Shown: in pieces, positions 3,001 through 43,058 of the stretch
Layout of the letters: every line of letters starts with the position of its first letter
How positions within the stretch are numbered: the stretch's first letter is position 1
Source: an uncultured virus (IMG/VR IMGVR_UViG_3300029305_011880)
Taxonomy: Duplodnaviria > Heunggongvirae > Uroviricota > Caudoviricetes
Direction: 5' to 3' (one strand)
IMG/VR virus record: IMGVR_UViG_3300029305_011880
Length of the DNA: 64,000 nucleotides
Notes under the pieces: generated by a model
Database searches by the model: none
What the model saw: the letters and a program-made list of their open reading frames with translations, nothing else
Told to the model about the DNA's origin: nothing
Translations under genes and position numbers: made by a program

Positions 3001-4782
3001 AGAATAATAGAACGTAGAAATACCATTATTTTCTTTTAACGTACAATATGGTTTTTGTCCAGTTTTTGTAGTACTATCATATTTTTTATATTTAGTTGTA
3101 CCACTTACAGTATCACATGTTGCAGTTTTAGGAACTAATTCATATACAAAATAAGACTTACCGTTAATGTTTTTTACATGTAACTCAACGTCGTTAAAAT
3201 AGTTAAACATTACTCGGCTGTAACAATTCTTTCCATCTATACTATAACAAGCACCTCTAGTAAAAGTACCAAATGAATGTTTGAAGTTTCTGTTAATGCC
3301 ATTTGGGTTAACATTACCAGATAAACCCAGATTCCAATAAGCCTCATCTGTAATATTACTTCTCATTCGAATTTTGATAATATTTATAGAACTTTCACTA
3401 CCAGAAGTATTACCATTTAAATAATAATAAGTACCTCTAGGCGACAGCCAGTATTGCCCACGAGTTGTCTCAGGATATAGGTTGTTACCATGAGTATTAC
3501 CCCAAGCAGTATGGTAGTTACCACCATTAGTGCCATATGAACTCATAAATGCGTAAGCAGAGTTTCTTTGGGTAATCGCTTCATTAAGGGCAATTTCGAC
3601 CGTTCCAATATATTGAGGCCCGCCAGCAGCTGTAATAGCCGCGTGCAAACCAGCCTGAGTATCAATAGCAGTAGATTTCGTTGTTCCCTTTTCTGAATAG
3701 TAATATGAGAAACCATGATATTTGTACCAACTAGTAGACATGGTATCTTTAATAGTTGTATAGTCACCGTTTAAATCGTCTCCATAGTATGGGAAATATC
3801 TATTACCATCTTTATCTGTCCCTTGAAGAATTCCAGCAATTTCATCTTCTGTATATTTAGTTTTTAAGGAAGTTCTAACAGAAGAAAAACCAGTCATATT
3901 ATTATCAGCCTTAACAGGAACTGGGCGACCAGTGCCTTCATCCATGATTGCCATAATCATAGTCTTACTACCTTCCGAACCTAAAACATGAGGAACAGTA
4001 TTGTAATAGAGAATAGTATTAGTAACTCTGAAAGCACCGTTATTATCTGTTAGATAATATGCCATACTACTTTTCTTAACATTGTCAAGATTTGTAGAAC
4101 CAGACCCATCATATACTTCATCAGTCCTGAAATTTTGATAAAGGTCAAACCCCTTACTCATGCGATGTAAATAGACCATTGCATACTTAATATCTCCAGA
4201 AGTATATCCTTCCGTTACAGCATCCCATTGGTCTACAACACCATCACCTGGAGTGCAATCAGCACAATTGCTATAAACAACTTTCTTGTTTTTATCTCTC
4301 CAGCATAATTTACCACTGCCGTCTCTAACGTCCTGACCAGTATATTCCTTCCATCCCGCACTCTCTCTACCAGGAACATTGAACAAATAGGTTATCATAG
4401 AGAAAGAAGAGTGTTTTTCATTAACATGGTCGGGATGAACGTAAGGCTGCGCCCTGTCTAACATTTTCCAAACAGGATATTTATGAATAGTTGGGTCCTC
4501 ACTGTTACATTTTAATGCATCGGCGGTAACCCCGTCCATAGTATCATCTATGACATTACTACTCATAGTACTGCTACTACACAAAATATCCTTATTATAG
4601 AAATGCTCAGGATTGTAGTTTGCATCTTGAGTTCTTCTCCATTTAAGAATTGTGTATTCTAAGTCGTTTTCATCATTTCCGCCTATATCTAGCGCAAAAA
4701 CGCTAGTGCCCAAGATGGAAAACAATCCAATAACTATTAATAAAACAAACAACCACTTAGAAAATAAACTTTTCACATTCAT
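1..4782 (-). CDS. Giant secreted/surface protein with glycine-rich domains (partial, >1590 aa, runs off left edge)
   Basis: ATG at 4782 with GGAGGT RBS at 4791-4796. N-terminus MNVKSLFSKWLFVLLIVIGLFSILGTSVFA is signal-peptide-like. The same frame at the window edge reads EVWGAQGG...GGLGGYATGTLKL...GGGGGGYSTI...GGAGGGSYY. Absent from the ORF track, consistent with no stop inside the window. Confidence 0.85.
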   Translation of the reverse strand, partial: MNVKSLFSKWLFVLLIVIGLFSILGTSVFALDIGGNDENDLEYTILKWRRTQDANYNPEHFYNKDILCSSSTMSSNVIDDTMDGVTADALKCNSEDPTIHKYPVWKMLDRAQPYVHPDHVNEKHSSFSMITYLFNVPGRESAGWKEYTGQDVRDGSGKLCWRDKNKKVVYSNCADCTPGDGVVDQWDAVTEGYTSGDIKYAMVYLHRMSKGFDLYQNFRTDEVYDGSGSTNLDNVKKSSMAYYLTDNNGAFRVTNTILYYNTVPHVLGSEGSKTMIMAIMDEGTGRPVPVKADNNMTGFSSVRTSLKTKYTEDEIAGILQGTDKDGNRYFPYYGDDLNGDYTTIKDTMSTSWYKYHGFSYYYSEKGTTKSTAIDTQAGLHAAITAAGGPQYIGTVEIALNEAITQRNSAYAFMSSYGTNGGNYHTAWGNTHGNNLYPETTRGQYWLSPRGTYYYLNGNTSGSESSINIIKIRMRSNITDEAYWNLGLSGNVNPNGINRNFKHSFGTFTRGACYSIDGKNCYSRVMFNYFNDVELHVKNINGKSYFVYELVPKTATCDTVSGTTKYKKYDSTTKTGQKPYCTLKENNGISTFYYSEGLDSKSLTYSDRQVAHESGDYSTTEYTFSKINIDKNVANKGKFQYSNAGNAWGVWRQTGWSLSGVEMGGGFAPDTRPFPQSPDEVQTDYSDFSNMCRFAWSEGYYYNNESVYNLGYIDTYIAKSNGTEARYNQYEELTDMYLTIIRTFPDMIFRTFEFADHVKKGTNNCTAAYPGPNAGSGSGAEEEKIEEYIKFRAPKADYDKIAAKLCDNLELNCNSVATFKTASKNASGDTLKSDLFANGYLAIVDALRTKDSGNITYAEHMAYAFYNFYVVISMPDEYSVGMIFASRNNGRNYNFEDVLLGDKSNIIMLNEETRLGTSATGNVDSKGNSVGTNLSSLGSETGGFMTLGEKFGPELYLINETTGEVYIPEMDLESMTCPTGYIREDNKCKAIHVVSYNRSCNSGYVFDFNEFKCVETGSGVTHCPDGFELEGNVCVSYDGSNAICEDGYWDAEKKVCLEYSDAFCGGGYTLTDVTEANKLAANLTYSFARGNGDFGKFTASGVSNFRQDSDSTIAYDLNSGDGYIELTGLNLDPLKNNLIQIKMKNASISDTAKIYYTTANSTGYNEAKSVSFEIEPNSDVTYYIYTVDMSGGMWNSNIKSLRFYLADVNKGTITIDNIAIGNEAADYKPTYKCVKDLDPVCPTGFTLYKGRCYGYASDLTSLPDSYELDCSHIVPKDNETVTLASFRVGDYVNFEHGTSTSVFTVPVDGKYYIELWGASNGTGKGGYTAGMADLKEGDTVYIHTATQNSARGTTAYKNGFGYDNILATAVSSAAGTNNLSSVTGINKITLSGNDWFKATNNIGNTSWAGEQGHTGNGYARITLYSAGGLTAQSGSKTGSVTTTETYNYTGASVTKSLLAGTYTVEVWGAQGGPSRSAAGGLGGYATGTLKLTSNSNLEILVGGMGAGKQQTSFYSSTGNAGGWPGGGKGGNDTDGNDNGNNELGGGGGGYSTIRVNGTAVITGGGGGGKTYTYNPGGRGTGGAGGGSYYSTGAAG

Positions 4783-32870: not shown

Positions 32871-35165
32871 TTAAATAATGTCATCATCGTCAATGTCTTC
32901 TATAAGAGAAGATGTTGCTTTAGGTTTATTAATCTTTGGTTCATCATCTAATTTGATATTTACTGTACTAGGTGCCGAATCAACTTTTGGTGTATTCCCA
33001 ACATAGTCACTCCTTTTTGGAGATGCGGTTTGAGATTCAAAAATTATTGGCCCAGACGCAGGCTTAGGTGCAGATTGTGGCTGAGGTTGTGGTTTTACGT
33101 ATGCCTGTGCTGTTTGTTGAGTTTGTTGAGTTTGAGGATTTGCTTTTGGAATATCTTCGTTTTCATCCTCGTATTCACTTCTTTGCTCAGCCAATTCCTT
33201 AGCTTCCCACAATTCTTTAACAGCATCCATATCGATTTCGGGATAAAGTTGCCCATTATTCTCGAAATCACGATATTTATTAGGGTCCCAGTTTAATGCC
33301 ATTAACATATTATTTTCTGTTACCATTTGGTCCAAAATAGAATTCAATTCTTTAGGAATATATGCGATTTTACCAATGCCAGGAACTTGCAATGTATTGT
33401 CTTGAATAATTGCATATGTGATTTCTCCGAACTTACGATAAATAATATCTGTTGGAGAATATCTAGCAACATCTTTTTCAGTAGTTCTTATAGATTCGGA
33501 AGGAGCATTAACTCTATTACCATATAGAGGATGGAATCTCTGTCTGGTTATACCTTTTTGCTCTTCTTTCTCTTTAATTTCTCCAAATTGGTCTGAATAA
33601 TATTTCGCATCAATAAAGTTACCACCAGGATAAATAACAACATTTCTTGCGTTAGTACTAACAAGTTCAATAAAGTCATCACCATCTTTACCAGAACCCA
33701 TACCAATAAGCGCTCTGTTCTGTGTAGCCAAATGAGATGCAACACGATAAGAACGTCCCTGAGTAAGCATGTCTGCAAAACCAGGGTTAGCATATGTCTG
33801 GAATTCGTCAATATACAGAAAATGAGGAATACGAGTATTTTCATTCCCTGGTCGTTTAAATACCGAAGACTGAAAGTTAAGAATAATGAAATAGCCAAGG
33901 AATTTACCAAGGTCTCTTAATTTACCTTGAGCCGTACAAATACAAATAATTGTACCATTCTCTAGGTGAGCATCAAAGTCAATATCACTTTTCCCATTTT
34001 CAGGATTTAAAACTTTTCGCAAATATTTATTAGAAACAATCTTAGCAATTTGGCTTCGAACGCCAGATGTGTTTTCATAAGTTTTGGATTTTTCAGCAAA
34101 ATAGTCACTCAAAAAATAGTTTGCAATATCTGCATTCTCTTTTGCCAAAGCTTCTGTCGCCGCGGGCTTTTTAGAGAAATCCATAACCATTTTTCTCCCC
34201 TGACCAACGGAGTTAGCAACCAACCGAGATAAATCAATCATTGTTGCTTTATTCCCCTTCAACCTTTTCAATACTTTCAAAGCGTTTCTTAACAACTGTT
34301 CATTCATGTCTTTAAAGTATTGAGGAGAATCTGGGTCCAACATATTAAATGTAGTAACAACGTTTTCTATAACGTCCTCTTCCTTGCCATATAGAGGGTT
34401 AAATGTTGGGCAAGCATCCAATATTGGATTAAAATAAACTGCGGGACGACCGTAGTACTGAGACATTGCATAAATTTTTTCAGCAAGGTCTCCCTTAGGT
34501 TCGATAACTGTAATCCCAGCATCTAAGTTCTGAACGTCTTGGTTAAGCATAGGAATAATACTCTGAGATGTTTTACCAGAACCAGTAGGACCAAGAATTA
34601 ACATATGTAAAAAACGGTCTTTGTATGGAATGATAACGGGGCTACCAGTTTCTAAGTCTTCACAAAGCTTGACGTCTCCTTTTTTCTGTTCTCTATCAAA
34701 CAAATGAATCCCTAAAGTAGTCCACATATTCACTTTTTTAATATTATCAAAGAACATACTAGTGGTTCCCTGTCTCAAAGTAAACCCCACAAATACAGCA
34801 ACGATAAAATCTACGAAGGCACAAATAGGAATTAACGCTCCACCTTCTTTTTTAAATATTGTGGGCCCAAGATTAGGGATTATCATATTAAGAATCCCGT
34901 TCATAAGAACGATTAAACCAGTAACAATTACTACTTGCAACATACCCAACAATGCATTTTGGTCTTTTTCTTCTTCAACTATAGAATTTATCATGAAATA
35001 TATAAGGGCAGGAATAAGCCCAACTATCACCGATAAAAATATATTTGTAAATCTAGTAGTGAAAAATAGCGCAATCCATATAAAATGCACAAGTATCCCA
35101 AAAAGCATTGATGTTTTTGGTTTAGATGCCATAGTTGTTACTACCGTTTTTAAAGCATCTTTCAC
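32871..35165 (-). CDS. VirD4/TraG-like type IV coupling ATPase (membrane-anchored)
   Basis: Four N-terminal TM helices, DRFLHMLILGPTGSGKT, EPKGDL, Walker B HFLYIDEF, QGRSY...ATQ. Confidence 0.88.
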   Translation of the reverse strand: MKDALKTVVTTMASKPKTSMLFGILVHFIWIALFFTTRFTNIFLSVIVGLIPALIYFMINSIVEEEKDQNALLGMLQVVIVTGLIVLMNGILNMIIPNLGPTIFKKEGGALIPICAFVDFIVAVFVGFTLRQGTTSMFFDNIKKVNMWTTLGIHLFDREQKKGDVKLCEDLETGSPVIIPYKDRFLHMLILGPTGSGKTSQSIIPMLNQDVQNLDAGITVIEPKGDLAEKIYAMSQYYGRPAVYFNPILDACPTFNPLYGKEEDVIENVVTTFNMLDPDSPQYFKDMNEQLLRNALKVLKRLKGNKATMIDLSRLVANSVGQGRKMVMDFSKKPAATEALAKENADIANYFLSDYFAEKSKTYENTSGVRSQIAKIVSNKYLRKVLNPENGKSDIDFDAHLENGTIICICTAQGKLRDLGKFLGYFIILNFQSSVFKRPGNENTRIPHFLYIDEFQTYANPGFADMLTQGRSYRVASHLATQNRALIGMGSGKDGDDFIELVSTNARNVVIYPGGNFIDAKYYSDQFGEIKEKEEQKGITRQRFHPLYGNRVNAPSESIRTTEKDVARYSPTDIIYRKFGEITYAIIQDNTLQVPGIGKIAYIPKELNSILDQMVTENNMLMALNWDPNKYRDFENNGQLYPEIDMDAVKELWEAKELAEQRSEYEDENEDIPKANPQTQQTQQTAQAYVKPQPQPQSAPKPASGPIIFESQTASPKRSDYVGNTPKVDSAPSTVNIKLDDEPKINKPKATSSLIEDIDDDDII

Positions 35166-35192
35166 CTATTTCATACCTCCCTTTCTCAAATA

Positions 35193-35441
35193 TTAACTCC
35201 AATACTTCTTCATGGCTATTAAAAATTCAGGAGTTATTTCAAAATCTATATTATCTGGAATTACAGTAGTATTTTTGCAATAAGGACAAACTGCAGCTGT
35301 ACCAGAATATTGTTTTACATCAGAAGAATTAATTTCTTGCATGCAATCATAACAATAACATTTACTAGAATAACTTATTTCGTTTATATTGTTTTTAGAC
35401 AAATCGTAAGCCTCAATCATTTTCATTCTTTTACTCTTCAT
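35193..35441 (-). CDS. Small Cys-rich (zinc-binding) protein
   Basis: CYCYDC and CPYC motifs. Start inferred from a GAAAGGA RBS. Confidence 0.65.
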   Translation of the reverse strand: MKSKRMKMIEAYDLSKNNINEISYSSKCYCYDCMQEINSSDVKQYSGTAAVCPYCKNTTVIPDNIDFEITPEFLIAMKKYWS

Positions 35442-35542
35442 AATTTTAATCATCCTTTCTAAGAAACAATTAATTGCATTTTTATATTGTATTTTAGAAT
35501 GAACGGAAAAATAAATAAAATGTTTATCACAAAACAAAAAGA

Positions 35543-35574
35543 AAAGACTTAGTAGAATTATCTACTAAGTCTTT
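35543..35574 (-). terminator. Terminator closing the tRNA array
   Basis: AAAGACTTAGTAGA-ATTA-TCTACTAAGTCTTT hairpin 10 nt downstream of tRNA-Gly. Confidence 0.8.
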
Positions 35575-35584
35575 AATATTTTCT

Positions 35585-35660
35585 TGGAGCAGGTGACGGG
35601 GCTCGAACCCGCAACATCCACCTTGGCAAGGTGGCACTCTGCCAATTGAGTTACACCTGC
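35585..35660 (-). tRNA. tRNA-Gly(GCC)
   Basis: Cloverleaf. Anticodon arm CCACC-TTGCCAA-GGTGG, GTTCGAG T-loop, CCA end. Confidence 0.95.
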
Positions 35661-35662
35661 AT

Positions 35663-35887
35663 TTAATTAGCAGGAGGATAATCGATACCTATTACTTTAT
35701 TTAGTACGTCCTTTAAACTCAATGCCGCTTCGAGAGACATTACAACACTAGCCACATCATCAATTTTCTGAATAGGCTGATGATTAGCGTCCTCTCCATC
35801 GACATATTGCTGTTTAAAAGTAATAATTACTTCAGTGCTATTACTGTTTTTACTAATAGCGAAAGCATTTGTAAATTGAGGTCTCAT
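35663..35887 (-). CDS. Small hypothetical protein (DUF3467-like pattern)
   Basis: AGGAGG RBS, MRPQFTNAFAIS...VIITFKQ...VASVVMSLEAALSL. Family assignment is from recalled resemblance only. Confidence 0.6.
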   Translation of the reverse strand: MRPQFTNAFAISKNSNSTEVIITFKQQYVDGEDANHQPIQKIDDVASVVMSLEAALSLKDVLNKVIGIDYPPAN

Positions 35888-35969
35888 GTTTTTCCTCCTA
35901 GTAATTAAAATAACTTTAACCGTTTGCGCTATCCAAGACACACCGCGTGGAGGTGGTTAATTGTGTCTC

Positions 35970-36041
35970 TTGCGGGGGAAGGAATTGAACCTCCGACCTT
36001 TGGCTTATGAGGCCAATGAGCTGCCACTGCTCTACCCCGCG
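35970..36041 (-). tRNA. tRNA-Met(CAT), initiator-like, CCA not encoded
   Basis: 5' CGCGGGG with C1:A72 mismatch. Anticodon arm TTGGC-CTCATAA-GCCAA. Confidence 0.88.
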
Positions 36042-36119
36042 TGGTTGCAAAGGTTGGATTCGAACCAACGACCTCCAGGCCATGAACCTGGCGAGCTGAC
36101 CAAACTGCTCTACTCTGCG
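36042..36119 (-). tRNA. tRNA-Met(CAT), initiator-like variant
   Basis: CGCAGAG/CTTTGCA with C1:A72 mismatch. Anticodon arm CCAGG-TTCATGG-CCTGG, GTTCGAAT, CCA. Confidence 0.85.
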
Positions 36120-36136
36120 ATATATAAAATTTAAAA

Positions 36137-36213
36137 TGGAGCGAGTAACGGGACTCGAACCCGTACCGCCTGCTTGGAAGGCAGGAGTGCTAGCCATTAA
36201 ACACCATACCCGC
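36137..36213 (-). tRNA. tRNA-Gly(TCC)
   Basis: Anticodon arm CCTGC-CTTCCAA-GCAGG, GTTCGAG, CCA. Confidence 0.93.
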
Positions 36214-36219
36214 ATAAAA

Positions 36220-36326
36220 ACCCTGGGACCCGTAGGTACTTCGTCTGCAGCCGACTGTGCTTCTTACAATAATTGCAGTTAAGCAGCTACTCAAAACCGC
36301 TCAAATGTAAGCATAGCCACCAGAGT
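36220..36326 (-). ncRNA. Candidate small structured RNA between tRNAs
   Basis: Ends pair (ACUCUGG/CCAGGGU). Internal hairpins include C(UACG)G. Confidence 0.4.
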
Positions 36327-36332
36327 ATGAAC

Positions 36333-36408
36333 TGGCTCCTCGTGTAGGGCTCGAACCTACGACCCTGCGGTTAACAGCCGCATGCTCTACCAACTGAGCT
36401 AACGAGGA
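36333..36408 (-). tRNA. tRNA-Asn(GTT)
   Basis: Anticodon loop CTGTTAA, G73, CCA. Confidence 0.95.
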
Positions 36409-36414
36409 ATATAA

Positions 36415-37203
36415 AAACCCATCAGCTTAAATCACCTTTAACGACCAGGGTTATTGTGGGGGCTACCCACTGCCGTCTGCTTTCTAGCAGCAATATTCAT
36501 CTAAACTTACTGATAGCTTCACAGATGAAAGATTCACTATCACCACTCCAGAGCCCACCTCTACGTCACCGCAGGATGAGATGATTATATTCAGAGGATT
36601 GTTATGCTGTCTTTACCCTCGTGCCAGCACCATCTATTCAAATGAGTGGATGATTCACTACTGTTGTTCGCCTTTTATAATCCATTAGAACTACAAAAGG
36701 ATTCGTGCTTGCTTTAAAGTATAATTTAGAGGGCATCAAGGCTTAAACCCGCACAAATTAGATTAACGTTCTTACACGGAGCTGTACGTTCTCATCTTTA
36801 TATCACGTTTCCATGATATCGTGGATGCTCAATACCACGCAAAGAGTTTCCAGAAGTCTTCGGTTTTGGCGATTATCCTAATCGAACAACACCAAATGAG
36901 TTCCTCTGTTTGCTCGCCTTTCACTACATCGGAATTATACGTCCGACGTGGGCAACGACCCCACGTTTTAAAAGGGTTTTGCGCATAGGCAGCGCAAGCA
37001 CAAATATGTCATTCCTTGCAACCCTAAAAGTTACGACATATCCGTGTCCGACCAATTTCTTCAAAGCCCATTGGTCTCCAGCTATCATCTGTAAATCTCT
37101 GACCGCATCAACCTACAGACTATCTCACTTGTTTCACCCGCACATTCTAAAATGAATGATAATAAGGCTATCCCCCATTAGGAGTGGTAGGCAGAGTTCT
37201 CCA
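36415..37203 (-). ncRNA. Candidate large structured ncRNA (~790 nt, GOLLD/ROOL-like context)
   Basis: No credible ORF, GC-richer than flanks, dense hairpins, located between tRNA-Asp and tRNA-Asn. Confidence 0.6.
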
Positions 37204-37280
37204 TGGCGACTCGGAAGGGACTCGAACCCTCGACCTCCGCCGTGACAGGGCGGCGTTCTAACCATCTGAACTACCGAGCC
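37204..37280 (-). tRNA. tRNA-Asp(GTC)
   Basis: Anticodon arm CCGCC-CTGTCAC-GGCGG, G73, CCA. Confidence 0.95.
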
Positions 37281-37346
37281 ATATAGAAAGTTTGGAATTA
37301 CGTATTGTTTTGTGCTAATACGCCACAATCAACCAAACTATTATAT

Positions 37347-37375
37347 ATTATAACATAAATATTAATAAAAGTCTA
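37347..37375 (-). promoter_or_regulatory. Internal sigma-A-type promoter
   Basis: TAGACT-17 nt-TATAAT with TG extension, upstream of tRNA-Asp. Confidence 0.6.
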
Positions 37376-37398
37376 CTTTTTTTTGTTCGAGCAATTAA

Positions 37399-37698
37399 TT
37401 ATTTGTTTAATAATTGTTCAGACAAGGTATCCACACCTTTTATGAATTCTTTATATAATGAACATCCAGTAATCCATTCGGGACCACCATCACATCTTTG
37501 AGAACCACAAGGATATTTTCTACAAATCTTATCTAAAAAGAGCTCTCTTAATCTTTTATCTTCTGGTGTTTCTTCATCGCTTACTTCAGGAATCTCTTCC
37601 TCCCATCCGCATTCATCACAAACATATCTGTGAAAATGATATTTATAAGAAACTACTTTCCCACATTTAGGACAAATCTTTAACTGACTATCCATCAT
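37399..37698 (-). CDS. Small zinc-ribbon protein
   Basis: CPKCG...CDECG plus a second Cys cluster. AAGGAG RBS. Confidence 0.7.
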   Translation of the reverse strand: MMDSQLKICPKCGKVVSYKYHFHRYVCDECGWEEEIPEVSDEETPEDKRLRELFLDKICRKYPCGSQRCDGGPEWITGCSLYKEFIKGVDTLSEQLLNK

Positions 37699-37720
37699 AA
37701 ATCACGCTCCTTGTTTTTGT

Positions 37721-37795
37721 TGGAGCTGGTGACAAGAGTCGAACTTGCAACCTGCGGTTTACGATACCGCTGCTCTGCCATTGAGCCACACCAGC
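37721..37795 (-). tRNA. tRNA-Thr(CGT)
   Basis: Anticodon arm GCGGT-ATCGTAA-ACCGC, GTTCGAC, CCA. Confidence 0.92.
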
Positions 37796-37809
37796 AGATA
37801 AGTTTAAAT

Positions 37810-38285
37810 AAAAAGTTTTGTGAATAACCCGTAGTAACTACCCATGACGTTCTACTCTCACCAATGGTATTCTCTGTGTTACTTCAACTTTAAGCTACAC
37901 AAACTCACGAACCGACGCATTATTCAAGCCCCTTTTGTCACCAGGCATCACTTATAACCCTATATTCGTCTTCTGAATTATAAGCTATCTCACTTATCTC
38001 ACTCTCACACGGGTGTGCTTTTGAGGTATCTCCCATTTAGAACGGTTGGTAGAGGTCACCAATATATGTAGAAACAAATATGTTCAAGTTTACAATGTGT
38101 CCAGTTTTTGGCATCATGTACATTAGAACAACCAATACGAAGATTATTTGACTCGTAGTGCAGCCTACACACCCTTGTTAGAGAACTTTTAAAATAACCT
38201 TAGTGGTCGTTACTTTCACATTTCTCGACAGTCCTATTTAGAAAAGGCATAATCTAAACACTTGAACTACTGCCATCGATATTTG
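37810..38285 (-). ncRNA. Candidate large structured ncRNA (~475 nt)
   Basis: ORF-free. Long-range helices CAAAUAU/AUAUUUG and GUUCAAGU/ACUUGAAC. Contains a paralogue of the 37005-37196 module. Confidence 0.55.
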
Positions 38286-38297
38286 TTTTTACCAAAG

Positions 38298-39176
38298 TTA
38301 AATTTCTACTCCAAGAAACTGTTTAGCAAGTATCCCAACAACAAAAGATAATACTGCAACACTAACACTTATCAGCGCCATTTCAGAAAATCTGGATTTA
38401 AAATTTTCTCCTTGAGCTACAGATATATAATATGTAAATACTGCTATGATTGCTATAACAGTTAACATCATAAATACTAAAGCCAATATATATTGAGTAC
38501 TACCCAACAATAAATACGGTAATATTAATAAAATAACTGTCATTAAATAAGCAATCCCAGTATAAGAACAGGATTTTAGTGCATCTGTTCTCCCTTCGCT
38601 TTTAGCAGATAAAAATTCACTGGAAGCCATCGAAAAAGTTGCTGAAATGCCAATAATTAATCCTGCAAGCGCAATTAGCTTGGTATTTTGCATAGCAAAT
38701 GTAAACCCAGCAAGAGAACCCGTTAATTCTACAAGAGCATCATTCATCCCAAGAACCATACTCCCTATATATTGAAGTCGTTCTTCATCCAGCATATTTA
38801 ATAATGCTTCCTCGTGCTCTTCTTCCTGCTTCCTAACTCCTATGCTTTCAGGAACTTCGTCTTTTAATTGTTCATACTCTTTTTGAGCATCCATTTCTCC
38901 GTTTTCCATAAGCTTAACAGCAAATGTAAAACCAAATATACGAGCAATCCATTTGTATTTAAACACCTTTCGCTTTTCTGGTTTCATTTCTTCATTGGTA
39001 TATTTCTTCCAGATTTCATAGTGCTTAAATTCTTCGTCTGCTAAACGATTTAGAGTAGATTTATTATCTTCACCTTTTGCAAATTTAGCAATTTCACGAT
39101 ATATAACGCTTTCAGTTAATTCATTTTGTTGCATCTTTCTTATAATAGACAAACTTTTTTCGGATATATTTTTCAA
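38298..39176 (-). CDS. VIT1/CCC1-family transporter with N-terminal ferritin/rubrerythrin-like domain
   Basis: ExxH motifs (DEEFKH, EEEH), then GSMVLGMNDALVE, FSMASSEFLS and several TM helices. Confidence 0.9.
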   Translation of the reverse strand: MKNISEKSLSIIRKMQQNELTESVIYREIAKFAKGEDNKSTLNRLADEEFKHYEIWKKYTNEEMKPEKRKVFKYKWIARIFGFTFAVKLMENGEMDAQKEYEQLKDEVPESIGVRKQEEEHEEALLNMLDEERLQYIGSMVLGMNDALVELTGSLAGFTFAMQNTKLIALAGLIIGISATFSMASSEFLSAKSEGRTDALKSCSYTGIAYLMTVILLILPYLLLGSTQYILALVFMMLTVIAIIAVFTYYISVAQGENFKSRFSEMALISVSVAVLSFVVGILAKQFLGVEI

Positions 39177-39205
39177 AATATTACCTCCATAATTAATATA
39201 TATCT

Positions 39206-39234
39206 ATTATATACATTTTTTAACAAGAAGTAAA
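39206..39234 (-). promoter_or_regulatory. Internal sigma-A-type promoter for the VIT gene
   Basis: TTTACT-17 nt-TATAAT. Confidence 0.55.
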
Positions 39235-39240
39235 GACATA

Positions 39241-39314
39241 TGGAGCTGGCACCCAGAATCGAACTGGGAACTAAGACTTACAAGGTCCTTGTTTTACCTT
39301 TAAACTATGCCAGC
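39241..39314 (-). tRNA. tRNA-Thr(TGT)
   Basis: Anticodon arm AGGAC-CTTGTAA-GTCTT, GTTCGAT, CCA. Confidence 0.9.
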
Positions 39315-39402
39315 GTATAAGGAAGCTTTTCTAAGATTACCTTAGCGGTTTACCAACCGTACCCACCTGTGGTGATTAAGGGTTCCGCATTCCACAGCAG
39401 CG

Positions 39403-39478
39403 TGGCTCCTCGTGCTGGGCTCGAACCAGCGCTATACGGATTAACAGTCCGCCGTTTTACCAACTAGACTAACGAGGA
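39403..39478 (-). tRNA. tRNA-Asn(GTT)
   Basis: Anticodon arm GCGGA-CTGTTAA-TCCGT, G73, CCA. Confidence 0.9.
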
Positions 39479-39484
39479 ATATAG

Positions 39485-39561
39485 TGGTACTCCCAGCGAG
39501 GCTCGAACTCGCATTGCATCCTTGAAAGGGATGACTCCTAGGCCCGTTAGAGGATGGGAGC
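39485..39561 (-). tRNA. tRNA-Glu(TTC)
   Basis: Anticodon arm CATCC-CTTTCAA-GGATG, GTTCGAG, CCA. Confidence 0.9.
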
Positions 39562-39571
39562 ATGTTTAAAA

Positions 39572-39714
39572 TGGTAGTCCCAACGGGATTCGAACCCGTG
39601 ACTCCGCCTTTGGTGCTGAACATGAGACTTGCACTCAAATCTTTACCGCAGTAATGTTTTACTTAAACTAATCCAACGAAAGGGCGACGACTTAGACCAC
39701 TTGTCGATGGGACC
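39572..39714 (-). tRNA. tRNA-Glu(TTC) interrupted by a 67-nt insert at 36/37
   Basis: Exon 39678-39714 ends ...TCGCC-CTTTC. Exon 39572-39610 starts AA-GGCGG...GTTCGAAT...ACCA. Joined, they form a normal cloverleaf. Confidence 0.85.
39611..39677 (-). ncRNA. Anticodon-less tRNA mimic nested inside tRNA-Glu
   Basis: GTTGGAT-TA-GTTTAAGTAAAAC-A-TTACTGCGGTAA-AGAT-TTGAGTGCAAGTCTCAT-GTTCAGC-ACCA: acceptor stem, D arm, tetraloop arm, T arm, CCA. Confidence 0.75.
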
Positions 39715-39850
39715 ATTTAAAAACTTCTTTAATCCGCTTCAACCCATAAACTTTCGCTTGCCACTACTAATTTATTATTTGGGCCCATTCTTCTATAAGA
39801 ACTCTGCGATAACTTGAAGTTGTTTAGTTTGACATACAACATGTCTTCGA

Positions 39851-39926
39851 TGGCTCCTCCAGCAGGGCTCGAACCTGCGACATCGTGGTTAACAGCCACG
39901 CGCTCTACCAACTGAGCTATAGAGGA
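39851..39926 (-). tRNA. tRNA-Asn(GTT)
   Basis: Anticodon arm CGTGG-CTGTTAA-CCACG, G73, CCA. Confidence 0.95.
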
Positions 39927-39932
39927 ATATAG

Positions 39933-40103
39933 TGGTTGTGAAGGAAGGACTTAAACCTTCTTATAACTCGCTACTAAATAAAATGATTTATCTTTCACTT
40001 CAAGAAATAGTTTCTTACTTTACTCGAGTTATCCTCAGACTTATTTCTTACGTTGTCAAGGCCGTATGCTGACCCCCGACTCGATGCTTCGTCTATCTTC
40101 ACT
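39933..40103 (-). ncRNA. 171-nt tRNA-like RNA with very large variable region
   Basis: Acceptor GTGAAG/CTTCAC, T arm GAAGG-TTTAAGT-CCTTC, ACCA end, 7-nt loop AGCATAC. Confidence 0.7.
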
Positions 40104-40109
40104 ATATAG

Positions 40110-40187
40110 TGGTGACCCATGCGGGATTTGAACCCAGCAACCTTCGCCTTGAAAGGGCGACGTCTTAACCAATTCGACTAATGGGCC
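40110..40187 (-). tRNA. tRNA-Glu(TTC)
   Basis: Anticodon arm TCGCC-CTTTCAA-GGCGA, GTTCAAAT, CCA. Confidence 0.9.
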
Positions 40188-40213
40188 ATGTAAAGAAGAA
40201 ATATAAAATTTCT

Positions 40214-40289
40214 TGGCGGCTCAGACGGGTGCTGCCCCCGCTATCTCCACTGTGACAGAGTGGCGAGTCTGCTGTTTCTCTTCAGAGCC
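40214..40289 (-). tRNA. tRNA-Asp(GTC), non-canonical T- and D-loops
   Basis: Anticodon arm CCACT-CTGTCAC-AGTGG, T-loop GGCAGCA, G73, CCA. Confidence 0.8.
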
Positions 40290-40299
40290 AAATATAAAA

Positions 40300-40375
40300 T
40301 GGAGCTACTACCCAGGCTTGAACTGGGGACTTCTTGCTTACCATGCAAGTACTCTACCGACTGAGTTATAGCAGC
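40300..40375 (-). tRNA. tRNA-Thr(GGT)
   Basis: Anticodon arm CTTGC-ATGGTAA-GCAAG, GTTCAAG, CCA. Confidence 0.93.
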
Positions 40376-40378
40376 ATA

Positions 40379-40455
40379 TGGTGACCTGTATGGGACTCGA
40401 ACCCATAACCTCCACCTTGAGAGGGTGGCGACTTAACCAATTCGTCGAACAGGCC
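40379..40455 (-). tRNA. tRNA-Glu(CTC)
   Basis: Anticodon arm CCACC-CTCTCAA-GGTGG, GTTCGAG, CCA. Confidence 0.93.
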
Positions 40456-40461
40456 ATAAAC

Positions 40462-40502
40462 AAAATAAAAAGAGGACATTCAGCGTGTCGCCAAATGTCC
40501 TC
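40462..40502 (-). terminator. Attenuator terminator just upstream of the first tRNA
   Basis: GAGGACAUUUGGCG-ACA-CGCUGAAUGUCCUC followed by UUUUUAUUUU. Confidence 0.85.
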
Positions 40503-40529
40503 ATAATAATCAAATTTTATAATTTGAAT

Positions 40530-40619
40530 TTATGCATGACAAATAGATGGCGACACCATACGTGCATCTCCATTACCTTCAGTATTTTCAGTTGTATTGA
40601 TAACTACGAACTTCAACAT
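40530..40619 (-). CDS. Leader peptide MLKFVVINTTENTEGNGDARMVSPSICHA (29 aa)
   Basis: AAAGGAGG RBS 9 nt before ATG. Lies between the promoter and the terminator. Contains GTGTCGCCA, complementary to the terminator. Confidence 0.8.
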   Translation of the reverse strand: MLKFVVINTTENTEGNGDARMVSPSICHA

Positions 40620-40734
40620 TATGGTTCGCCTCCTTTTTGTAAATTTTTGATTTATATAAATATATGTATTCGATAACGATTTAAAATATTATTAAAAAGT
40701 GTTTTACACTGTCTTTTTTTCGTTCTACGATATC

Positions 40735-40763
40735 ATTATAGCATATAAATTCCAAAAAGTCAA
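40735..40763 (-). promoter_or_regulatory. Near-consensus sigma-A promoter of the tRNA operon
   Basis: TTGACT-17 nt-TATAAT with TGn extension. Confidence 0.85.
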
Positions 40764-40784
40764 CCCCTTTTTGAAAATTTTTTA

Positions 40785-42029
40785 TTATTTTCGTTCGAGC
40801 AATCCATCCTGAATCATTCTATCAACAATTCCAAAATGAATTTCTAATTCATCAGCATCTTCAGTATACCAGTCAAATATTCTTTCTTCCCAACAAAGCT
40901 CGAAATCCCGAATAAATTCTTTCTCTTCGTCAGTAAATGTGTAGTAAGGATATGTTTCATCTACATTTGACTTGATGTAAGCTGTAACACTAGATAAGTC
41001 TCTTAGGATTATAACATTTTCATTTTTCCATTCTTGAATTATCTTTCTGGTCTCACTATTTAAGTAGTAATGATTAAACCACTCAACATAAATACTACTA
41101 TCAGAATTTATATCATATTTAGTTTGTGTTTTGAAATAGTCTACATCATCCTCTAAACTTTCGGATAAGAAAATATCTAAGTTACCAAAACTCTTCCCAT
41201 CATTATAAATATAATCATATCCCAAATTTAAATTTTCGGCCTGTTCTCCAACAAGTAAATGAGCATAATTTTCCCCTGAACCTTCATATGTCCAAGAAGA
41301 TGGTGCCAAATCATATTTAATATTCCCATATCCCATGTCTTCAAAAATATCATCTATCTCGAAACGAATTTTGCCTTCTTCCAATTCAATATTATAATCT
41401 CCTAATTCTTTTGCTATATAGAAGGCTTTATCATAATAAGTTTCATACATCTCTTTAGTTTGTTCTCTAGTAAAATATTTAGCCTCTTCGGGCATCTCAA
41501 TATTCTTTTTCCAAGAATCAGTATACCACATAGATACAATATGATTGATATTTTTACCAACTAAATATCTGCTATCTTTTAGATATATCATGTTGCCAAT
41601 CGTTTTTTGCCACATAGCCTTATATTCTTCGTCATTGTAAATGCTTTCAAAAGAAGAATATATATCTTCGTCTATATATTCTTTAAGCGTTTCCATGTCT
41701 AAGTCAATAGCAGCATTTACAACAACATTTAGATAATGGCTGATTTCAGCATCGGATAAATCTTCTTTATTCTCTGGTAATTGACCATTTTCTCTTATCC
41801 CAACAATCTCAACATCTTCTTCGGTTAAATTATTATCATTTTCAGAAGATGTATCGGCTTCATCATAACTATCTTCTACGTTATTCATGTCTTCATTATC
41901 TTGATTAATGACTGCATTATTCTCTTTATTATTTAAATCTTTTTCATCATTTGAGTTATTATTATTTCCGCACGCAACTAATGATAACATCATAACTCCT
42001 ACTAATATCAATGATAATACTTTTTTCAT
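40785..42029 (-). CDS. Acidic lipoprotein
   Basis: Lipobox LVAC after MKKVLSLILVGVMMLS, Asn/Asp-rich linker. Confidence 0.8.
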   Translation of the reverse strand: MKKVLSLILVGVMMLSLVACGNNNNSNDEKDLNNKENNAVINQDNEDMNNVEDSYDEADTSSENDNNLTEEDVEIVGIRENGQLPENKEDLSDAEISHYLNVVVNAAIDLDMETLKEYIDEDIYSSFESIYNDEEYKAMWQKTIGNMIYLKDSRYLVGKNINHIVSMWYTDSWKKNIEMPEEAKYFTREQTKEMYETYYDKAFYIAKELGDYNIELEEGKIRFEIDDIFEDMGYGNIKYDLAPSSWTYEGSGENYAHLLVGEQAENLNLGYDYIYNDGKSFGNLDIFLSESLEDDVDYFKTQTKYDINSDSSIYVEWFNHYYLNSETRKIIQEWKNENVIILRDLSSVTAYIKSNVDETYPYYTFTDEEKEFIRDFELCWEERIFDWYTEDADELEIHFGIVDRMIQDGLLERK

Positions 42030-42080
42030 ACAAAAACTCCTTTCAAAAAAATAGCAGCAGATTTATCTGCTGCTATGAGA

Positions 42081-43058
42081 TTAATTAATTACTACTTGAC
42101 CGTTATCTTCAACAATATTTAATTCTACGTTGGTATAGAAGTTTGCCAATTCAGAATTATTGTGAATCTCCCCGATGTCGCAATCTTCGACTCTGAAGAT
42201 TACTGGAGAATCGGTAAGAACGTTGACAGAATCGGCTTTAACATTTGTAAGGAAGAAACCGCCGTACAAACTACCGCCATAAATATAGATATTGCCATTA
42301 ACCTTAACATTAACTAAAGAAATTTTGAAGTTACCTTTTACAAAACTATCTTCCATAGCTCCCTGAGTAATAATCAAATCACCATTAATAGTTGTGTTTT
42401 CAAGATACGTCATTTTTTCTTTCAAAATAAAATTCCCATTATATACGGAACCCTTTACGATACCATTGGATACGTTGGGGAAAATCTTGTCCAGAGTAAC
42501 AATCATATCAGACACAGTAGCGATTCTACTTGGAAAAATGTAATCAGTAGATAAGTTTGACATGTAGCCTGCTTCTACAAATTCTTTAAAAATCTCTGCA
42601 TTTTCAGCAGAAACTTCGTCAATGTCGAGATATTCTGTAGTATCGACATCAGGGAAAGAAATAGGCAAGAAACTTAAATATGCAGGAATCTCTTCTCTAA
42701 GAATATATTGAGTAGGATAGAAAAAATCATCTTCTAACTCCATTAATCCATGAGAAACTGCTATCTGCACATAGTTGTAATACCAGTCACTTTCACTAAC
42801 GTCAAGAATTCTTTGTGGAGCACCTTCAAGCTGCAAATCAAAAGCTTCAACGAGCATATATGCTAAATTGGCTCTATCTAACTTAGTAGATATGTTAGTC
42901 AATTCATTTTTGCCAGAATAAATGTTGTAGTCAGACCAAGAGCTAAAAGTGCTTTTTTCCCACTTTGTCTCGTCGGCTAATGCAGGAATTGAAGATATAA
43001 CTAAAGCAGAAATAATTAATAGAGCAACAACTCCGTGCATGCTTTTCTTTAAATTCAT
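42081..43058 (-). CDS. S-layer homology (SLH) domain protein
   Basis: Signal peptide. Degenerate SLH repeats (DVSESDWYYNYVQIAVSHGLM...FYPTQYILREE). Confidence 0.75.
   Translation of the reverse strand: MNLKKSMHGVVALLIISALVISSIPALADETKWEKSTFSSWSDYNIYSGKNELTNISTKLDRANLAYMLVEAFDLQLEGAPQRILDVSESDWYYNYVQIAVSHGLMELEDDFFYPTQYILREEIPAYLSFLPISFPDVDTTEYLDIDEVSAENAEIFKEFVEAGYMSNLSTDYIFPSRIATVSDMIVTLDKIFPNVSNGIVKGSVYNGNFILKEKMTYLENTTINGDLIITQGAMEDSFVKGNFKISLVNVKVNGNIYIYGGSLYGGFFLTNVKADSVNVLTDSPVIFRVEDCDIGEIHNNSELANFYTNVELNIVEDNGQVVIN

Follow-up and report, generated by a model that had tools for sequence, protein, structure and literature searches.

Organization of the leader and its tRNA array

A 64,000-nt stretch of DNA catalogued as IMG/VR virus record IMGVR_UViG_3300029305_011880 (hereafter the window, in whose positions all coordinates are given) carries on its minus strand an array of tRNA genes preceded by a leader module, and it is this leader, a candidate leader-peptide attenuator, that we analyzed here. 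ARAGORN identified 14 tRNAs from 40455 to 35585 (three each for Glu, Thr and Asn, two each for Gly and Met, and one for Asp), with the anticodons Asn-GUU (three), Thr-UGU, Thr-GGU, Thr-CGU, Glu-UUC (two), Glu-CUC, Gly-GCC, Gly-UCC, Asp-GUC and Met-CAU (two). The first block (39241..40455; Glu-CUC, Thr-GGU, Glu-UUC, Asn, Glu-UUC, Asn and Thr-UGU) lies behind the leader's terminator, and the second part (35585..37795; Thr-CGU, Asp, Asn, Gly-UCC, Met, Met and Gly-GCC) lies downstream of internal promoter-like sites. The downstream genes that would be regulated are these 14 tRNA genes, and not genes for amino-acid biosynthesis, transport or aminoacyl-tRNA synthetases.

The upstream edge of the module is an A/T-rich stretch with GGGG (40764..40784) that adjoins the -35 element, next to a lipoprotein gene whose stop codon ends at 40785. 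The promoter is of the sigma-70 type with a TG extension (TTGACT-17-TATAAT, 40763-40735, 11/12 consensus matches) and is the best-scoring of 41 promoter-like sites in 35000-42200. It is followed by an A/U-rich 5' untranslated leader of ~109 nt (40620..40728, counted from a start site predicted from the sequence), within which a ribosome-binding site, AAAGGAGG (40636-40629), stands 9 nt upstream of an ATG, and then by a 29-codon open reading frame (ORF) with the sequence translation MLKFVVINTTENTEGNGDARMVSPSICHA (40619-40530 including the stop codon). A small A/U hairpin (40510..40527), present in the minimum free energy (MFE) fold, lies between the stop codon and an intrinsic terminator (40461..40502 including the U-tract). 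The terminator hairpin (40502-40472) has 14 pairs (7 G-C, 2 G-U), the loop ACA and the tail TTTTTATTTT, with an energy of -20.0 kcal/mol alone and -21.2 kcal/mol in context. The first tRNA, Glu-CUC, begins at 40455, 6 nt past the T-tract. An initial annotation of this DNA had read a near-consensus promoter, a strong ribosome-binding site, a short ORF, a 14-bp terminator and the first tRNA in this order, and each of them is in place.

No minus-strand promoter-like site was found between 40513 and 39235, so the first seven tRNAs appear to be reachable only by read-through of the terminator. One site with 10/12 matches does lie within the leader ORF (40542-40514); its transcripts would simply terminate, as they would start upstream of the hairpin and downstream of the segment from which an antiterminator could form (segment 2, below). 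Internal promoter-like sites precede later tRNAs at 39234-39206, 37375-37347 (with TG) and 36613-36584, which bears out the initial annotation's caveat that the Gly and Met tRNAs also lie behind internal promoters. On the opposite strand, promoter-like sites reach only 9/12. In addition, the AAAAAGGGGTTGA..TTTTT motif of the promoter also precedes tRNA genes in a Clostridia genome (G001), where the tRNA begins 13-45 nt past the -10 element. As the motif is common to those genes, the array appears to use a stable-RNA-type promoter with a device of ~270 nt inserted after it.

Leader codons match the tRNAs of the array

The proposed sensing codons are codons 8-18 (40598-40566; AAU ACA ACU GAA AAU ACU GAA GGU AAU GGA GAU), which specify Asn, Thr, Glu, Gly and Asp. 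Under standard wobble rules the tRNAs of the array read 11/11 of these codons, in agreement with what had been claimed for them at the outset. The five amino acids make up 34% of the residues in the window's proteins, among which runs of at least 11 in-set residues number 1 in 17,530 aa; counted by 29-aa windows of the same proteins, such a run is contained in 22 of 16,606. If residues are treated as independent and identically distributed, the probability of the run is 9e-5, or 2e-4 with Met added to the set. The composition of the run (N3 T3 E2 G2 D1) also stays within the multiplicities of the array (P 0.022), and its first seven codons call solely for amino acids of the first tRNA block (P 0.024); both observations are post hoc and are not counted as evidence.

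The encoded peptide has only 6 hydrophobic N-terminal residues (it starts MLKFVVI), followed by 11 polar or acidic residues. It could itself be the product, for example a signaling or inhibitor peptide of the kind found on pheromone plasmids: the leader RNA of pCF10 prgQ/IRS1 is peptide-coding and runs into a terminator ahead of transfer genes, the same layout of promoter, short ORF, terminator and operon, and among the genes of the present element are some for conjugation, namely two TraG/VirD4-like ATPases and those of a Tad-type pilus. We find this extremely doubtful, considering that nothing signal-like precedes the polar core beyond the residues just mentioned, that no processing or modification gene is nearby, and that the analogous leaders described below differ entirely in sequence yet track their arrays.

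Several specific peptide classes were set aside individually. These were a type I toxin (the peptide is without a membrane-spanning hydrophobic stretch), a secreted signaling peptide (the core is polar and not signal-like), a leader of the pheromone-plasmid (prgQ/IRS1) type (there is no hydrophobic signal peptide, the ctRNA_pT181 match given below is under its gathering score, and opposite-strand promoters are just 9/12) and a precursor of a ribosomally synthesized and post-translationally modified peptide (no modification, processing or export genes adjoin).

Alternative pairings and the position of the ribosome

Codons 19-27 form segment 2 (40538..40564), which has two mutually exclusive partners. 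Its core, GUGUCGCCA (40556-40548), is the exact complement of UGGCGACAC (40493-40485) in segment 3 (40502-40485; the 5' arm and loop of the terminator), and UGUC (40541-40538) pairs in addition with GACA (40499-40496). The best antiterminator duplex has an energy of -19.2 kcal/mol, which was matched by 6/2000 dinucleotide shuffles of the ORF region and by 10/2130 natural 117-nt stretches of the window. The antiterminator described in the initial annotation, with its exact complement and UGUC/GACA extension, is therefore present and beats the shuffle control. The same annotation had assigned the sequestering of the antiterminator strand to AGAUGCAC, and this assignment failed: the hairpin in question is weak (-7.0 kcal/mol), and the strong competitor is the region of the Shine-Dalgarno sequence and start codon. 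This region, segment 1 (40615..40641; the Shine-Dalgarno AAAGGAGG, the start codon and flanks), forms a duplex with segment 2 (40641-40615 with 40564-40538) of -23.0 kcal/mol, a value reached by 0/2000 shuffles, and the duplex is present in the MFE fold; folded as a hairpin, the pairing reaches -25.2 kcal/mol. As segment 2 has two good partners, the leader appears to be a true 1:2/2:3/3:4 system with the initiation region as segment 1, so that of the layout first proposed the three exclusive pairings hold and the identity of segment 1 does not.

With pairings of this strength, the leader might also be an RNA-only switch, in which the three-way choice is set by a bound protein, small RNA or tRNA (as in T-box leaders) and the ORF is incidental or tunes the fold. 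The pairing of the initiation region with segment 2 is indeed the most significant structure found, the whole leader folds better than its shuffles (z -3.5, 0/200), and the natural variants described below show almost no synonymous change in the ORF region. However, a consensus Shine-Dalgarno at working distance from the ATG and 29 open codons argue for translation, and the discriminator and CCA of the first tRNA (ACCA) would need UGGU in a T-box bulge where the leader has UGGC. No Rfam family matched the leader either, T-box included: in a search of 34000-42000 nothing but tRNA reached threshold and no T-box was seen at E up to 1, the sole non-tRNA match on the leader being ctRNA_pT181 at 32.7 bits against a gathering score of 56. 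We consider an RNA-only switch very unlikely, and a T-box riboswitch as such was rejected for want of a covariance-model match.

The effect of a translating ribosome was modeled by folding the leader with 28 nt masked around the ribosome at each codon. For nascent RNA ending at 40485, at which point segment 3 has been made and segment 4 has not, the antiterminator has a probability of 0.28-0.99 while the A site is at any of codons 2-18 and still of 0.54 when it is at codon 19; the value then falls to 0.00 for codons 20-29, with 0.04 for the stop codon. In this model codons 2-19 are thus the permissive zone, and the 11-codon run lies wholly inside it, fills its last part and ends at its edge.

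Both the pairings and this result depend on where a ribosome stalls and not on why, so the leader might be a translation-coupled attenuator that reports general translation speed or ribosome availability (in starvation, antibiotic exposure or stress), with the codon match a by-product of a polar, A-rich coding style. Such an explanation would suit a leader that overall is not enriched in amino acids of the array (12/28 residues in the set, P 0.32), and Bacillus leader ORFs that sense ribosome-stalling drugs are known (PMC6851288). We nevertheless regard it as unlikely, if well worth weighing, because the contiguous run is improbable, the run ends exactly where the permissive zone ends, and two analogous leaders of quite different composition each match their own array only.

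Natural variants of the leader

Three variant contigs from three other runs (X8, X9 and X12) are ~95% identical to the leader, with X8 covering part of the ORF. Four terminator-stem positions are substituted in the variants (40479, 40481, 40485 and 40498), and pairing is kept in 4/4 (chance ~0.06). An A>G change at 40516 in X8 likewise keeps its pair in the small A/U hairpin, as U-G. The ORF is without frameshift or stop in X9, in X12 and in the covered part of X8, and its only changes are A19T (40565; X8 and X12), which places an additional Thr codon beside the run, and a synonymous GCA>GCG (40533; X8). The most variable part is the 5' untranslated leader, where X9 and X12 each have 4 substitutions and lack 2 nt, while the promoter has no substitution in X9 and X12 has one just downstream of it, at 40729.

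The likeness of X9 and X12 to the window ends at 40784/40783, 21 nt upstream of the -35 element and one base from the stop codon of the upstream gene, with unlike sequence beyond. As it ends just upstream of the promoter, the promoter, leader and array appear to be inherited as a unit with different neighbors.

Analogous leaders on related elements

We take the source of the window to be a conjugative megaplasmid-like element of gut Clostridia. The window has 33% G+C and encodes, besides the two TraG/VirD4-type coupling proteins/ATPases and the Tad-type pilus set, gyrase A and B and a ParM-like actin, and its sequence occurs in animal gut and faecal metagenomes. TraG gave 11 strong matches in a plasmid collection, on plasmids of 127-722 kb from Clostridia and Bacilli, and tRNA genes were present on 9 of the 10 TraG-matched plasmids searched (2-54 each), which makes tRNA arrays a habitual feature of this family of large conjugative-type elements. 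In a collection of genome contigs, TraG relatives were found at 9 loci, with 0 tRNAs within 10 kb. 'Plasmid' matches in Vescimonas and Monoglobus were rejected as relatives, the loci being chromosome-like tRNA loci. A preprint on gut conjugative megaplasmids (PMC12934698) makes no mention of tRNA, gyrase, Tad or actin.

Sequence searches with the locus itself returned little. The whole array gave tRNA-level matches only against plasmids and phages, a degenerate pattern for codons 7-18 had 0 matches in viral contigs and 0 in metagenome contigs, and the leader DNA gave only short promoter-like matches against 5 genomes. The upstream lipoprotein has 0 relatives in metagenome and viral contigs, and a 99-aa protein and a VIT-family protein of the array have 0 in viral contigs.

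We therefore compared leaders by their match to the arrays and not by sequence similarity, scoring the longest run of in-set residues in the ORF at the head of each array against that array's own amino acids; the ORFs were picked by eye, which leaves some freedom of choice. The heads examined were those of pJFP838A, the C. difficile BI1 and Clostridioides ES-W plasmids, Brevibacillus, Aneurinibacillus (large and small), pSC2 (large and small), P. thiaminolyticus, Bt407, Jeotgalibacillus and two arrays of the single Oscillospiraceae contig described below. Five heads were informative, the window's included. The arrays of pSC2, P. thiaminolyticus, Jeotgalibacillus and Bt407 serve every or almost every amino acid and are therefore uninformative, and several other heads are without a Shine-Dalgarno-led ORF. 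With ORFs chosen in this way, the match to the own array is strong in 3 of the 5 informative heads, weak in 1 and absent in 1. The strong matches are the window (run of 11, P 2e-4), Aneurinibacillus (run of 27, P 5e-4; 21/10,875 windows) and Oscillospiraceae (run of 7, P 3e-4; 27/18,776 windows), the last with 18/37 residues in the set (P 8e-5). When leaders were instead scored against foreign arrays, the run P was at least 0.05 in 20/20 comparisons. Related leaders at odds with their arrays had been named at the start as the result that would speak against attenuation; what was found is that the head ORFs of two distant relatives match their own array and no other.

The first of these relatives is the Aneurinibacillus plasmid NZ_CP116888.1 (TraG 57% identical; L030 and L036), which has a promoter, a Shine-Dalgarno-led 46-codon ORF (L030:691-831) and a terminator 4 nt before an array of 26 tRNAs. 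The 27-residue run of the ORF falls in the 15-amino-acid set of the array. Ala and Gly are missing from the ORF, and tRNAs for these two amino acids are missing from the array. Gaps inside this array hold ordinary genes and no further leaders. The second is Oscillospiraceae contig G003:C3 (TraG 61% identical), where a 38-codon ORF (L048:576-692) and a terminator lie in the region L048:520-1060. This leader is rich in Glu, Gln, Cys, Trp, Phe and Tyr, which include the two rarest amino acids, and the array reads Glu-Gln-Cys-Glu-Trp-Gln-Phe-Tyr. Its antiterminator (-20.4 kcal/mol, 0/1000 shuffles) lies directly past the matched codons and is lost with a ribosome at codons 30-38. For a further array on the same contig, at 2.3-4.3 kb, the head was not definable. 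The second tRNA cluster of the contig has a G+C-rich element of ~75 nt repeated in its spacers (L052:2826-2900 and 3738-3815).

Other heads look different. On the C. difficile BI1 and Clostridioides ES-W plasmids, which carry 2 tRNAs each, no Shine-Dalgarno-led ORF was seen: tRNA-Pro is preceded by a leader of ~400 nt (L023:1860-1990 and L035), conserved between both plasmids, in which a long-range stem, AATGGTTGC / GCAACCATT, is followed by a T-tract and then by a second hairpin. Directly before the 33-tRNA array of the Bt407 plasmid BTB_502p (L047) there is a hairpin with the 5' arm AAAGGAGG, a Shine-Dalgarno look-alike without an ORF. In the pSC2, P. thiaminolyticus and Brevibacillus plasmids (L032, L044 and L029), a Shine-Dalgarno-led ORF of 85-90 aa and a terminator stand ahead of the array in 3/3; these ORFs share motifs such as IGSLYSK..AFR, with weak pairwise BLAST similarity (E 0.12), and P. 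thiaminolyticus has an apparent tandem second copy.

That three Paenibacillaceae relatives have a head ORF resembling a family of real small proteins, and not a leader, is one reason to ask whether the window's ORF is likewise a conventional small gene, or else a small RNA, transcribed from a promoter of its own to its own terminator, the tRNAs being expressed by leak-through or from unrecognized promoters and the run and complementarity being chance. The 10/12 promoter-like site inside the ORF would be in keeping with this, as would the lack of a leader homolog and a terminator that is strong and always favored at equilibrium. For it to be correct, however, three separate improbabilities (the run, the antiterminator and the Shine-Dalgarno pairing) would have to coincide, the first seven tRNAs would have to be expressed with no promoter-like site of their own while transcripts from the internal site still meet the terminator, and a promoter, leader and array inherited as one block, with an own-array match that recurs in relatives, would have to be fortuitous. 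We judge it rather improbable.

Proposed mechanism and its weighing

The reading that we favor, with somewhat better than even confidence, is that the promoter, leader and terminator constitute a codon-sensing leader-peptide transcription attenuator for the array. RNA polymerase would start at the stable-RNA-type promoter, and a ribosome would load on the strong Shine-Dalgarno site and translate the 29-codon ORF. The RNA of codons 19-27 (segment 2) would then pair either with segment 1 or with segment 3. Without a ribosome, 1:2 would form first and the terminator (3:4) would halt transcription 6 nt before the first tRNA. A ribosome that moves smoothly to codon 20 or past it would cover segment 2, and the terminator would form again. 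A ribosome lingering in codons 8-18 would hold off segment 1 and leave segment 2 free, so that 2:3 would form and transcription would enter the tRNA genes. As the lingering codons (Asn, Thr, Glu, Gly and Asp) specify the amino acids that the array serves, slow decoding for want of the cognate tRNAs would raise their supply, and as the regulated genes are tRNAs and not enzymes, the circuit would correct a tRNA shortage and not an amino-acid shortage. The scheme supposes that the ORF is translated, that ribosome and polymerase are coupled, that read-through is conditional, that something depletes the tRNAs, and that the leader senses depleted or cleaved tRNAs.

A number of results weigh against this scheme. 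First, on the structural side, equilibrium folding of the full leader gives a terminator probability of 0.91-0.99 at every ribosome position. As the terminator is always favored at equilibrium, any switch must be kinetic; in classical attenuators the terminator is likewise the more stable structure. Conversely, for nascent RNA to 40485 and no ribosome the antiterminator is favored at equilibrium (0.74), so termination without translation would hinge on 1:2 forming first, which is plausible considering that both of its strands exist before segment 3. Coupling is a further concern, since in Bacillus subtilis transcription often outruns translation. Second, it is the contiguity of the run alone that is unusual, given the unenriched leader as a whole, and each amino acid is represented there by just 1-3 codons, whereas his, phe and thr leaders have more. 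Third, the variants lend limited help: segments 1 and 2 are invariant in X8, X9 and X12, hence no compensatory change bears on the antiterminator, X9 and X12 have one extra loop base in the terminator that reduces the 9-bp antiterminator complement to 8 contiguous pairs, and the substitution rate of the ORF is not significantly lower than that of its flanks (Fisher P 0.06, 0.16 and 0.25). Finally, the comparative evidence is uneven. No homolog of the leader sequence was found (blastn against phages and plasmids gave tRNA or noise matches only). The head ORF of pJFP838A, which is without a Shine-Dalgarno, matches its own array weakly (run of 8, P 0.035), and the 90-aa head ORF of Brevibacillus, which is probably a real small protein, does not match (run of 4, P 0.45). 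Of the two relatives that do match, the antiterminator of Aneurinibacillus is weak (35/1000 shuffles), and in Oscillospiraceae an HTH-like ORF (~80 aa) lies between terminator and array.

Overall, the attenuator of the initial annotation survives in amended form: its layout, codon match and antiterminator all beat chance controls, its segment 1 was misassigned, and the switch has to be a kinetic one. Mobile elements have been proposed to carry tRNA genes for codon-usage compensation or for escape from tRNA-cleaving defences. On the attenuator reading, tRNA supply would be a closed feedback loop through a leader that reads the codons the array serves, and the leader would be a simple sequence signature from which to predict the tRNAs whose shortage an element anticipates. 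More tentatively, and with a little less than even confidence, we suggest that on mobile elements ranging from gut megaplasmids to phages, spare tRNA genes may be gated by short 'test' ORFs composed of the codons that these tRNAs decode. Such ORFs would be a widespread and as yet undescribed class of decoding sensor, turning on replacement tRNAs when those of the host are mismatched, uncharged or cleaved by anticodon nucleases.

Other features of the array

The array is closed by a two-way terminator predicted on both strands (35543..35574), a 14-pair hairpin. The internal promoter-like site before tRNA-Asp (37347-37375; TAGACT-17-TATAAT with TG) has a spacer like that of the leader promoter (GACTTTT ... 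ATTTAT) and no ORF or terminator after it. Between tRNA-Asp and tRNA-Asn, a G+C-rich spacer of 795 nt (36409-37203, minus strand) has no convincing ORF and no Rfam match, and it folds far better than its shuffles (z -3.67, 0/20); a large structured RNA within the array is one possible identity. A drum RNA (59.2 bits) is present in the related array of pJFP838A, at L022:2785-2912. A second non-coding spacer of 502 nt (37796-38297, minus strand), past the gene for the VIT-family protein, shows no folding signal (z -0.10). That gene (38298-39176, minus strand) encodes a 292-aa VIT-family-domain protein within the array and has the promoter-like site at 39234-39206 as its own.

A tRNA-like stretch at 39583-39745 (minus strand) has an apparent insert of ~68 nt after a UUC anticodon loop, with acceptor and T arms intact by eye. 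Rfam gives a tRNA match of 29.2 bits at 39614-39677 and a weak match to a tmRNA 3' end at 39583-39600, and ARAGORN makes no call. Just past the second tRNA-Met, a weak match to an F. prausnitzii HDV-like ribozyme (35909-35969, minus strand; 23.2 bits against a gathering score of 44, E 0.63) is probably chance.

Comparison with known systems

No published account of a leader peptide or attenuator before tRNA genes was found in the full-text literature, with subscription literature outside this scope. Older work on the E. coli tRNA-Phe genes may be relevant here. Judged from its sequence, the present leader is probably a variant of leader-peptide attenuation with a new target class, tRNA genes; if general, this would extend one of the longest-established schemes of gene control in bacteria to a further kind of target.

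The nearest likeness is to the leaders of amino-acid operons (trpL, hisL, thrL and ilvL) and of aminoacyl-tRNA synthetase genes. Leader-peptide attenuators are described before alaS, thrS and trpS in Streptomyces (PMC8079986), and leader-peptide attenuation in the His leaders of bacilli (PMC2965389), and these leaders have in common with the window's a promoter-proximal short ORF, clustered diagnostic codons and a terminator before the regulated genes. Amino-acid-operon attenuators are also built on mutually exclusive 1:2, 2:3 and 3:4 pairings, the 3' end of the ORF supplying segment 2, and the thr and ilv leaders, like that of the window, sense several amino acids together. The window's leader differs from amino-acid attenuators in that its targets are tRNAs, its segment 1 lies in the initiation region where theirs is formed by the diagnostic codons, its run covers five amino acids with 1-3 codons each, and its setting is a mobile element.

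T-box riboswitches, which occur in the same phylum (Firmicutes), resemble it as terminator/antiterminator leaders that report the state of a specific tRNA. However, uncharged tRNA is bound by the T-box RNA itself, independently of translation, whereas here a translated ORF would do the reading. The stalling leaders of Firmicutes antibiotic-resistance genes, such as the tylosin-induced leader of B. subtilis (PMC6851288), are similar in that a ribosome stalled on a short ORF remodels the downstream RNA, and they indicate that such coupling of ribosome and RNA remodeling works in Firmicutes. In those leaders the stall comes from a drug together with a specific nascent peptide and the targets are resistance genes, whereas in the leader of the window it would come from codon supply and the targets would be tRNA genes.

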